Assembly (NCBI RefSeq): GCF_910592395.1
Contig: NC_088312.1
Location: forward strand, 2,997,858 to 3,061,857
Direction of reading: 5' to 3'
From: Lineus longissimus
Lineage: Eukaryota
Length of the DNA stretch: 64,000 nt
Made by a program: the position numbers and the translations under genes. Position 1 is the first letter of the stretch, and each line of letters starts with the position of its first letter. Below the pieces are notes generated by a model that ran no database searches, was not told where the DNA came from, and saw nothing but the letters and a program-made list of their open reading frames with translations. Positions 48,533-51,596 of the stretch are shown here, in pieces.

Positions 48533-48670
48533 TTATGTGAGAAGTAAGACGTCTGCCGAAATGTACGCGTCATCGGGTGCGGTAATGAAAGGCTTGTTTC
48601 CATCCGGGCTTGACCAGTCCTTCACCTTGACGTACCATGAGGACTGGTAACCGAGCTGCTTAGCGAGGAC
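48533..48670 (-). CDS. ebony: Ebony-like NRPS-like enzyme, exon 3 (C-terminal domain end: VLAKQLGYQSSWYVKVKDWSSPDGNKPFITAPDDAYISADVLLLT, stop)
   Basis: Acceptor ttacattccag|GTCCTC on the minus strand, phase 0. Aligns to the Drosophila Ebony C-terminus (..QQLADVYHYK....VHSDGSRPF..). Confidence 0.75.
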   Translation of the reverse strand, partial: VLAKQLGYQSSWYVKVKDWSSPDGNKPFITAPDDAYISADVLLLT

Positions 48671-49007
48671 CTGGAATGTAACACATAATAGCATTCGACA
48701 AGAGGAACCATTATAGAAATTATCCAGCCCATTGTTTTCAACCTCGGACATTTTTAATGATCACTGGTATGTTACTTTATATTAAACCCAAGACGACGCA
48801 GATCGCTACACTCTAGTCTAACTGATGTTGGACGATTTTCTTTCATGTTGGTAAATTTTTGCCTTTGCCAAGAGGAAATAACTTATATCCTCTTGCATTT
48901 GCCTAAGTCTTTCAGTCGTTTCCCCTAATTGCCTGCTGCTTTCTAGACTGAAGGTTTCAAAATTTTCCTCACCAGTTTTGCGAATATTTAGAAATGGCCA
49001 TACGTAC

Positions 49008-49210
49008 CTGCGTCACAAGGTTCACATTGACGGAACAGATGCCCAACATCCCTCTCTTCCGGCAGTCCTCGATCAGCGTCTTTTCGAACAGCTCAAGAAT
49101 GTAGAGGTTCTCCTCATATGCCAGCTCGGGCAGGGTGACCGCCAACTCCGCCTCACACCATCTACTGTGGTTGCCTTTGATGAAGGCACTGAAGCTGGAC
49201 TCAGATTCGA
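49008..49210 (-). CDS. ebony: Ebony-like enzyme, exon 2 (C-terminal domain: VESESSFSAFIKGNHSRWCEAELAVTLPELAYEENLYILELFEKTLIEDCRKRGMLGICSVNVNLVTQ)
   Basis: Acceptor ctgtatgctttccag and donor CAG|gtacgt on the minus strand. Phase 1 in and phase 0 out connect exons 1 and 3 exactly. Confidence 0.75.
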
Positions 49211-49456
49211 CTGGAAAGCATACAGAGATTTATATGATAAGAGAGCTTCTGCTATGTCGTTTTTGTGATCGAGTGGGAAATCAGCCAGACTCTCAGTTTT
49301 ATGATCGAATGGTGAATCCGTACTTAAGACAAAGTCAGACATGCTACGTGTATACAGATGGTGTGACATGTCGGCTTGGACATCAGTACCACTTTCTCGT
49401 CCGCGCAAAAGGATCAACAAATCATTAAAAACTTCGGAACAAGCGACTATACTTAC

Positions 49457-51596
49457 CCAGCATGAGGCATATCTTCCTCATGCACGAGTTCCGCATCATG
49501 GTGTCCATCTTCAAATCAAAACACGACAGAACGTTGAATTGAACAGCGACAATTCTTCCCGTCTTCTTCTCCAGGACGACATGGGACAGCCGGCTTGCTA
49601 AACTCCCCTCCCACACCGCATCCGTAAAGAGCCGCATATCTTCATTGCGAATCCCGGCCGAGCCGCACAGGGGACACTTCCTCACCATCCCATGCTCGAC
49701 AATCGGGTCGATTTCCTTGCGGTCGGATGGTTGCAGGGGTCGGAGTTGATATCGGCTTGCCAGCACGGTCTTTGCTTCGGCGACTAACCCAGTTTTTATC
49801 GTCTCTACGATCTCACTGATTGTCCGAGCAGCAAAGAAAGCCCCTATTTCTATAGCGTATCCTAAATTTCTGAGACCTGCTACTGCATTCACTGCTTCGA
49901 CTGAGTTACCACCAATTTGAAAGAAATTGTCTGAAAGTTTCACGCGAGATGTTCTGACACCGGTAACGGATGCTATGACGTCGACAACATTTCTGTTCAC
50001 GTCGTCTGTTTCTGTGCATCCGCTATCAATCAGGGTTTCATCGTAGATATCTTTCAGGCGTTCTAAGTCTATTTTGCCCGTGTGGCTTTGCACGGGCATC
50101 TCCTTCAGAACAACGACTGTCGGCACCATGTAATCCGGCAGGGAGGAGCGACATGCCTCCACCAGACGGCTTGCTTCCAATGCCCGTTTAGCATTCTTCT
50201 CCGTGACCGTGAATGACACGATTGTGCCCGCTGAACCCCTTGGTCGGCAGACGATAGAAACAACATCCTTGACAGTCGACAGGGAAGAAATCAGACGATC
50301 GATTTCAGACAAATCGACTCGTTGTCCTCGGATTTTGACTTGAGTGTCTCTCCTGCCGTAGAAGTAAATCCTCCCTTGTGCAATCTTGCCGTAGTCACCG
50401 GAACGAAATAGGGGACTCGCACCTGATTTCTCAATCGTGTTCTCCATGAAATCATCTGCTTGCTCCATTTTCATGTAACCATCCGCGACATTTTTGCCCG
50501 ACATCAAAATCTCGCCGATCTCCCCCTCAGCTACTGGTCGCATTTCATTGTCTACAACGTAGACAGTACAGTTGTCGATAGGCCCGCCTATGGACATTCT
50601 ATCATCGAGGCATTTCTCCTCAACATCTCTGACGTCTTGGAACACATCATAAGTGACATCACCCGTTACCTCGGTCGACCCATAGTAGTTAGCAAGGACA
50701 GTCCCACTGAAGAAGGAGAAGAACTGCTTGGCTAGAGACGGCGGGAGCGTCTCTCCGCTACAGACGATTAATTTCAATTTTGACAACATATTAAAACGGT
50801 CACTCATCTTCAAGTACAACAGCAACGTCTTTAGCAACGTAGGCACGACAACCAGTCTCGTTACTCCATGGTCAGTGACAGTTTTTACGAAAGACTCGGG
50901 GTTCTGCACGATGTTTCTTGGAATGATTACAACGGGAATCTTACGAAGTAAGCAGCCCCAAGTCTCCGTGATGCTGTCTACGAACAGTAGTGACGTTTTT
51001 GCCGCCCCCACCTCACTCTCCGTGAAGGGGAACTGTCGCCATTGCCAGCGAAGGCGATTCAGGACGCTACTGTGCCGCAAGCGGACCCCCTTGGGTTCGC
51101 CAGTACTACCAGACGTATAAAGGACGCACGCTAAGGGATCCTGATCATTTCCTTTCTGGTACGTTGTAAGCATTTTGAGCTTGTCGCCCAACAAATCGTA
51201 ATCAAGGAGTCGGGTACTTTCGCTGAAGATACTTGTCTTGTTCACAACTCCCGCATACTCCGCAGCGTAAATGATGATCTCTGGCTTGGCTTCACGGACA
51301 ATTTGCAACACCCTTTGTGGTGGGATCGTCGGCTCCACAGGAAGGTACCCCATGTGCAGTTTGAACGCTGCAAGGATGGTGATAATGCGTTTCTCACTCG
51401 GCGGCATCGCAATGCAAATCAGAGGGTTCCTATTGGTCTTCAACGGTGACACCATTCCCATGATTTCATGCTGTAACCGGCAGGCGACCAGGTCGGCCCG
51501 CTTGTTCACCTCCCCGTACGACATGGTCTTGCCCCCGTAGAAGATGGCTGGGGCGTCCGGGGATGCGCTGGCAATGTCCTCGAAGATATGGTGCAT
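49457..51596 (-). CDS. ebony: Ebony-like NRPS-like enzyme (beta-alanyl-amine synthase family), exon 1: complete adenylation domain, PCP/thiolation domain and start of the C-terminal domain (713 codons)
   Basis: A-domain core motifs LYTSGSTGEPKGV (A3), NYYGSTE (A5), YRSGDYGK (A7), GRRDTQVKIRGQRVDLSEID (A8) and PVQSHTGKIDLERL (A10). PCP motif FFQIGGNSVEAV with the Ser for phosphopantetheine. The stretch VLYTSGSTGEPKGVRLRHSSVLNRLRWQWRQFPFTE..FVDSI.E.WG..VVVPTLLK.LL.YLKM is near-identical to Drosophila Ebony. The exon ends at donor CTGG|gtaagt, 28 nt before the in-frame stop. Confidence 0.9.

Follow-up and report, generated by a model that had tools for sequence, protein, structure and literature searches.

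Which enzyme does the long minus-strand open reading frame (ORF) at 49425–51596 encode, and how does that enzyme relate to insect Ebony? The ORF, of 723 residues, lies in a 64,000-nt stretch of the nemertean Lineus longissimus (NC_088312.1, 2,997,858–3,061,857). This whole stretch is called the window here, and all positions are given in window numbering. The initial annotation had joined the segments 51596–49457, 49210–49008 and 48670–48533 into an Ebony-type nonribosomal peptide synthetase (NRPS)-like gene. The join, with its canonical splice sites and exact phase, was reproduced and gives a 2481-nt in-frame coding sequence of 826 codons followed by TAA. The locus is a real, intact, spliced and functional nuclear gene. 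Its sequence makes it very likely that the product is a single-module NRPS-like enzyme of the Ebony/flatworm-NRPS type, predicted to ligate beta-alanine to a biogenic amine. RefSeq already lists the gene under its correct name, and the family has been published for the same species, so this is not a new discovery.

Gene structure and purifying selection

The best match of the 826-residue product in a protein search was XP_064628472.1 (P0001), at 100% identity and 100% query coverage. This protein of 883 residues sits on a 23.9-Mb chromosome-scale contig and carries the NCBI name 'beta-alanyl-bioamine nonribosomal peptide synthetase ebony-like [Lineus longissimus]'. Using tblastn against the window and reconstruction of the coding sequence, we found that only a combination of four exons, all on the minus strand, reproduces it exactly. 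Coding exon 1 (58489–58605), located by tblastn from the RefSeq model, has 39 codons (MGQCFGVVESWSQFVSSICTGWIGLLTKRTRYHEAPHRV, MGQCFG...HRV) and a GTGAGT donor. The 6.8-kb intron 1 (51651–58488; GT..AG, acceptor TTCTAG) separates it from coding exon 2 (49457–51650), which begins with 18 codons upstream of the ATG at 51596 and then encodes the whole adenylation domain, followed by the carrier domain and the initial ~100 residues of the C-terminal one. Intron 2 (49211–49456; 246 nt, GTAAGT...TTTCCAG, phase 1) and intron 3 (48671–49007; 337 nt, GTACGT...ATTCCAG, phase 0) flank coding exon 3 (49008–49210; 203 nt). Coding exon 4 (48533–48670) contributes 45 codons and the TAA stop at 48533–48535. 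An ATTAAA is present at 48508, 25 nt past the stop codon.

Introns 2 and 3 had been placed in the initial annotation base for base as in the RefSeq model. The gene had also been called complete, which does not hold: exon 1 and the 18 codons from 51650 had been missed, and together these encode the 57 extra N-terminal residues of the RefSeq protein. Because of the RefSeq exon 1 and the conservation of the 18 upstream codons described below, the ATG at 51596 is taken as the internal Met58. Residues of domains and motifs are numbered here from this methionine, that is, in the 826-residue product.

Two features of the upstream part of the gene were also noted. The exon 1 peptide of the RefSeq prediction starts with MGQCFGVVES..., in which Gly2 and Cys4 resemble an N-myristoylation/palmitoylation signal. 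The peptide has no meaningful Pfam match, and the MGQCFG N-terminus is absent from the two Lineus paralogues and from Drosophila Ebony. Intron 1 contains a 70-nt inverted-repeat pair (53375–53444 and 54312–54381; 99% complementary, 867 nt apart) made of 27-nt AAACA/GAAAC-rich tandem units. They may be terminal inverted repeats belonging to a non-autonomous DNA transposon of ~1 kb.

The second-best protein match, P0002, is encoded on contig L001 from a Joint Genome Institute (JGI) metagenome (sample 3300040954, Ga0451425_167329, 6414 bp). L001 is evidently the DNA of a related nemertean. It is filed as metagenome yet bears an intron-containing nemertean gene, which makes it host or animal DNA within the metagenome. 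A prokaryotic gene caller ran past its donor site, and this resulted in the truncated, 716-residue P0002.

The L001 protein is 88% identical to the Lineus ebony-like protein. DNA similarity between the window and L001 is limited to exon 2 (82% identity, window 51661–49450 against L001 2162–4373) and exon 3 (78%, 49216–49002 against 5244–5458), and it ends a few bases from the predicted splice sites. Exon 4 corresponds to L001 5776–5919 with 83% protein identity. The introns are unalignable and of unequal length; the L001 counterpart of intron 2 has ~880 nt. When spliced at the homologous GT-AG sites, L001 gives a product of 826 residues that starts at the same Met and aligns without gaps. Both downstream junctions, those of introns 2 and 3, are kept, as are the exon-2 acceptor and the 18 codons before Met58 (SSLCILRGEKTP[G/N]EDGKL). 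The splice junctions of introns 2 and 3 are therefore backed independently by the RefSeq model and the conserved L001 orthologue. Exon 1 was not found in L001, which has only 2.1 kb upstream, compared with the 6.8-kb intron here.

The ratio of nonsynonymous to synonymous substitution rates (dN/dS, Nei-Gojobori) between the window gene and L001 is 0.063 overall, at a dS of 1.13. By region it is 0.044 for the adenylation domain, 0.096 for the carrier domain, 0.102 for the C-terminal domain and 0.047 for the 18 upstream codons. As estimated from this pair of sequences, these values show purifying selection on the ebony-like gene. Together with the kept codons, they indicate that the gene is functional and constrained and that its coding region reaches upstream of the ATG at 51596.

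Domains and proposed chemistry

The adenylation (A) domain extends over residues ~5–516 (50049–51584, minus strand). Pfam AMP-binding matches residues 5–374 with E=1.4e-63, far from what chance would give. As the initial annotation had stated, the core motifs are all there: A1–A10 were located by pattern search, including YTSGSTGEPKG, NYYGSTE, FRSGD, GRRDTQVKIRGQRVDLSEI and TGKID. With its A10 lysine and core motifs intact, the domain is predicted to be catalytically competent. The A3–A5 stretch, previously described as near-identical to Drosophila Ebony, agrees with it at 39 of 56 positions (70%) with one indel, so that description was too strong.

The thiolation or carrier (T) domain (49797–49988, minus strand; residues 537–600) is matched by Pfam PP-binding with E=3.9e-9, and the PCP sequence quoted for it earlier, FFQIGGNSVEAV, is present. 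The GGNS motif at residues 562–565 aligns with LGGNS of Drosophila Ebony and contains the phosphopantetheine-attachment serine, S565 (codon 49902–49904). By sequence, the A-T part resembles solved bacterial NRPSs, for example LgrA at 2e-101. Pfam scans gave no match to the condensation domain PF00668 and, beyond AMP-binding and PP-binding, no further domain in the protein. There is no HHxxxDG motif in the 883 residues. The claim of a standalone single-module NRPS in a metazoan, lacking a condensation domain, is thus upheld for this spliced animal gene.

The C-terminal amine-selecting, or atypical condensation, domain (48536–49754, minus strand; residues ~615–826) is encoded by exons 2, 3 and 4 and split by introns 2 and 3. 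These ~212 residues have no meaningful Pfam match. A phmmer search matched them to the Ebony crystal structure 6dym (E=5.2e-7, 19–216/7–204) and to four related entries; the structures of the Ebony C-terminal domain are PDB 6DYM/6DYN/6DYO/6DYR/6DYS. An alignment of 22 C-terminal domains (alignment A1), with nemertean, annelid and arthropod members, was the basis of an AlphaFold2 model. The model has a mean predicted local distance difference test (pLDDT) score of 92.8 and a predicted template modelling (pTM) score of 0.89. A Foldseek comparison with the PDB placed 6dym, 'C-terminal condensation domain of Ebony', at rank 1 (E=9.3e-17, template modelling (TM) score 0.80). Ranks 2–23 are nearly all insect arylalkylamine, polyamine and agmatine N-acetyltransferases, with other GNATs lower. 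The fold predicted by the model is GNAT/AANAT-like and not the C-domain (CAT) fold. The Ebony C-terminal domain itself is an AANAT-like transferase with little sequence similarity to other family members (PMC10510592). The earlier assignment of an Ebony-like amine-selecting domain is borne out by both the sequence match and the predicted fold. The six invariant residues of the 22-sequence alignment (K26, S57, E142, N161, T166 and F195 in domain-alignment numbering) are all retained.

The insect AANATs Dat/AANAT1, Tribolium AANAT (6v3t) and Aedes aaNAT2 (4fd5) have the same GNAT fold as this domain (Foldseek E 1e-13 to 1e-10, TM 0.74–0.82), and attack of an amine on a pantetheine-linked thioester is presumably common to both. 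Their sequence identity to it is 12–19%. They are stand-alone, acyl-CoA-dependent enzymes of ~210 residues, whereas the Lineus domain is fused to A-T and would be supplied with the acyl donor by the carrier domain in cis. A profile search with the C-terminal domain matched 1274 representative proteins with E<=1e-3, of which 457 reach E<=1e-10. In many of them, 800–950 residues long, the domain is at the C-terminus, which argues that the fused A-T-amine-selecting architecture is widespread; the rest are mostly fragments.

The specificity code was extracted as the earlier annotation had envisaged. It reads VDTTICYGDK (V206, D207, T210, T253, I277, C279, Y304, G312, D313, K508), with positions set from the A4, A5 and A10 motif anchors and GrsA numbering, not from structure superposition. 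The code is of the Ebony type: 7 of its 10 residues are identical to those of Drosophila Ebony (VDATWCFGDK), including V235, D236, D331 and K517 (GrsA numbering). Of 26 family members compared, nearly all conform to VDx[TS]x[CS]xGDK. Val at position 235, where Asp is usual, combined with Asp331 is the pattern of domains that activate beta-alanine or other beta-amino acids. All four positions looked for in a beta-alanine-type code (Val235, Asp236, Asp331, Lys517) are present. On this basis beta-alanine, or another small beta/omega-amino acid like it, is the predicted substrate, but the code is not proof of it.

By homology to Drosophila Ebony and the flatworm enzymes, the following mechanism can be proposed. 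The fly work behind this homology is reportedly that of Richardt (2003) and Izore (2019). The A domain would adenylate a small beta-amino acid, most likely beta-alanine, which would then be loaded as a thioester onto the phosphopantetheine arm at Ser565 of the carrier domain. The GNAT/AANAT-like domain would bind a free biogenic amine together with the acyl group on the pantetheine arm, which takes the place of acyl-CoA. Aminolysis by this domain would free the beta-alanyl-amine with no canonical condensation domain involved. The enzyme thus probably joins beta-alanine to a biogenic amine; we infer the identity of the amino acid, of the amine and of the biological role by analogy. The enzyme may inactivate or recycle neurotransmitters, as in arthropods, or form a signalling conjugate, as in flatworms. 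Nemerteans are not known to have a sclerotised cuticle, which makes a role in neurotransmitter handling or signalling more plausible than one in tanning.

Relatives and alternative readings

After the two best matches come ebony-like proteins of nemerteans, annelids, arthropods, a priapulid and hemichordates. Drosophila melanogaster Ebony is matched at 2e-120 with 99% query coverage. The best full-length matches are animal ebony or ebony-like proteins with the RefSeq annotation on top, in agreement with the initial annotation. A neighbour-joining tree built from 47 sequences of the family agrees roughly with animal phylogeny: arthropods group with the priapulid, spiralian nemerteans with annelids, and hemichordates stand apart. 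The L001 orthologue is the nearest neighbour of the window gene in the tree; the other L. longissimus paralogues and a Tubulanus sequence join next. The tree contains nemertean-specific duplications.

RefSeq annotates three L. longissimus genes as ebony-like, and one of the other two lies elsewhere on the chromosome of the window gene. The paralogues are XP_064627331/3/4 (same chromosome) and XP_064633566/7 (another chromosome), and they are 39–42% identical to each other. They and the paralogues in Tubulanus polymorphus share with the window gene the architecture, the RefSeq name and the grouping in the tree, but their N-termini and amine-selecting domains differ. A tblastn search of the 64-kb window matched this locus and found no tandem paralogue. 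Since neither of the others lies in the window, the paralogues are not immediately adjacent tandem copies. Judged from the tree, at least three paralogues arose within nemerteans, and the window gene, as one of these lineage-specific nemertean paralogues, is a co-orthologue of ebony. Of the earlier description as a full-length, intact orthologue, an intact family member and co-orthologue therefore stands; full length fails by the 57 N-terminal residues, and the relationship to ebony is not 1:1.

The Lineus protein and Drosophila Ebony are of similar length (883 and 879 residues). Both have the order A domain, T domain with the GGNS serine and AANAT-like C-terminal domain and nothing else, and neither has a canonical condensation domain. 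Global identity is only 34%, with 40% in the A domain, 33% in the T domain and 22% in the C-terminal domain. The MGQCFG... exon of the Lineus protein is unrelated to the fly sequence, and the tanning role cannot apply in nemerteans.

Ebony conjugates beta-alanine to dopamine and histamine; in schistosomes and planarians the product of the homologous enzymes is beta-alanyl-tryptamine, which serves as a reproductive signal (PMC11214079). The flatworm NRPSs (Schistosoma mansoni Sm-NRPS and Schmidtea mediterranea NRPS) belong to the same Ebony clade (PMC10531068). Like the Lineus protein they come from spiralian animals and have the A-T-amine-selecting architecture (PMC11214079, Fig. S2 legend). 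They show that conjugates of this kind can serve as signals rather than being products of inactivation. Sm-NRPS differs in its 1227 residues with insertions. No flatworm protein was among the 120 best matches of the 826-residue product, so the flatworm NRPSs are evidently more divergent from it than arthropod Ebony is. Two matches of the C-terminal profile, P0245 and P0248, were considered and are not the schistosome protein. P0245 (1244 residues, from an AT-rich eukaryote) has an Ebony-like A-T-amine-selecting region behind a ~500-residue hydrophobic, multi-pass-like region, and is either fused or mis-predicted as fused.

Several observations weigh against a straightforward Ebony-type activity. 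The C-terminal domain, at 22% identity to that of Ebony, is the most divergent in the 22-sequence alignment, with 18–28% identity to the other members. The arthropod-conserved HSFMMGT is EAELAVT here, NTSPLTQQL is NVNLVTQVL, and the FDxxDEP region is altered. It follows from this divergence that the amine specificity could differ. The code departs from that of Ebony at 239 (A>T), 299 (W>I) and 322 (F>Y). At position 299, Trp occupies the pancrustacean and chelicerate sequences in the comparison and Val most of the spiralian ones; the residue here is Ile. In addition, exon 1 is a RefSeq prediction, and activity and expression of the protein are likewise predicted. A rival reading is a neofunctionalised paralogue of the same architecture, using another small amino acid and/or a non-classical amine to make, in place of beta-alanyl-dopamine or beta-alanyl-histamine, a nemertean-specific metabolite such as a signal, pheromone or toxin precursor. 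The C-terminal divergence, the Ile at code position 299, the low mutual identity of the L. longissimus paralogues, the unique N-terminal exon and the varying choice of amine within the family, as seen in the flatworm homologues, would fit this. Against it, V235, D236, D331 and K517, taken as the beta-amino-acid-type positions, are kept along with T278, C301 and G330, none of the six invariant C-terminal residues is lost, and the data contain no positive sign of a different chemistry. We therefore regard neofunctionalisation as a real but minority possibility. A more specific version is that the copy, with its strongly diverged amine-selecting domain and with or without its slightly altered A pocket, makes an undescribed conjugate (a signal, pheromone or toxin/pigment precursor), much as flatworms make beta-alanyl-tryptamine, and that exon 1 tethers the enzyme to membranes. 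This would be less likely again, and we consider it doubtful. If true, membrane tethering through MGQCFG... would be a feature not known for Ebony.

The remaining explanations are further from the evidence. As one of several paralogues, the gene might be a decaying duplicate, a pseudogene with its frame still open. The intact frame across four exons, the intact catalytic motifs, the splice sites conserved in L001 and a dN/dS of 0.063 at dS ~1.1, with A, T and C-terminal domains alike constrained, make this very improbable, and the comparison with L001 effectively refutes it. The closest solved A-T structures are bacterial NRPS modules, the Ebony A domain being absent from the PDB, which would suit a piece of a bacterial NRPS that is a contaminant or was acquired by recent horizontal transfer. 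It is hardly conceivable for a gene with three spliceosomal GT-AG introns, a tree that roughly tracks animal phylogeny, and animal-type flanking genes (IRS-PTB docking protein, SH3, C-type lectin). The top ~107 protein matches are animal or unnamed, and the first condensation-domain-bearing ones appear at about rank 108; best matches to bacteria, which would have spoken against an animal Ebony, were thus not what we found. The GC content of the gene (~0.44–0.50) is near that of the surrounding window. Introns, phylogeny and animal-type neighbours exclude a contaminant or a transfer of recent date. The A-T core is also found in AASDH (ACSF4-U26), the other animal protein of A-T type that activates beta-alanine, an activity attributed to ACSF4-U26 in the literature. 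In AASDH the A-T core is followed by a non-GNAT C-terminal region with PQQ-like beta-propeller repeats. The Lineus protein instead ends in ~210 residues with the predicted GNAT/AANAT fold matching Ebony and has no additional Pfam domain, and its best named matches are annotated ebony or ebony-like, none AASDH. The chance of an AASDH orthologue is negligible, and the sequence match to 6dym and the Foldseek result for the C-terminal fold rule it out.

The surrounding window and the place of the gene in its family

The window has an animal-like composition, with a GC content of 0.34–0.50. An uninterrupted 468-residue ORF at 12226–13632 (plus strand) starts with MGCTIST and has an IRS-type PTB domain (Pfam E=5e-19); from its sequence it looks like a single-exon, FRS2/FRS3-type myristoylated docking protein. 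The ORF at 43932–44333 on the same strand is the size of an exon and encodes a C-type lectin domain (E=1e-12). Near it, 42045–42377 (plus strand) has a weak cadherin-repeat match (E=0.009) that is below the Pfam cut-off, and a 31/64-nt tandem repeat at 42390–42546 lies between the two. The minus-strand ORF at 27383–27748 ends in an SH3 domain fragment (E=3.5e-5) and is presumably an exon of another gene. Two tandem arrays, at 18751–19088 (111 bp x 3, 96% identity) and 20580–21270 (126 bp x 5.5, 73%), yield spurious repetitive ORFs on both strands. A 121-residue ORF at 24786–25151 (minus strand; ...FKCLHGLAPSYLSELI...RAFSIGAPKMWNKLP...FKRSLKHFLF) has no Pfam match. We take it to be like the conserved C-terminal tail of many metazoan retrotransposon-derived repeats.

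For the ebony-like gene itself, a 2023 survey included Nemertea in the Ebony clade and listed L. longissimus loci on OU342996.1 and OU342998.1 (PMC10531068, Table S5). Ebony-like NRPSs outside arthropods, those of this species included, have thus already been described. The RefSeq name is correct, and the class is known from structural and biochemical work in flies and from functional work in flatworms, so the locus adds little new knowledge in these respects. With several divergent paralogues under strong purifying selection in nemerteans, the gene keeps some residual value as a candidate for studying the diversification of beta-alanyl-amine chemistry in spiralians.

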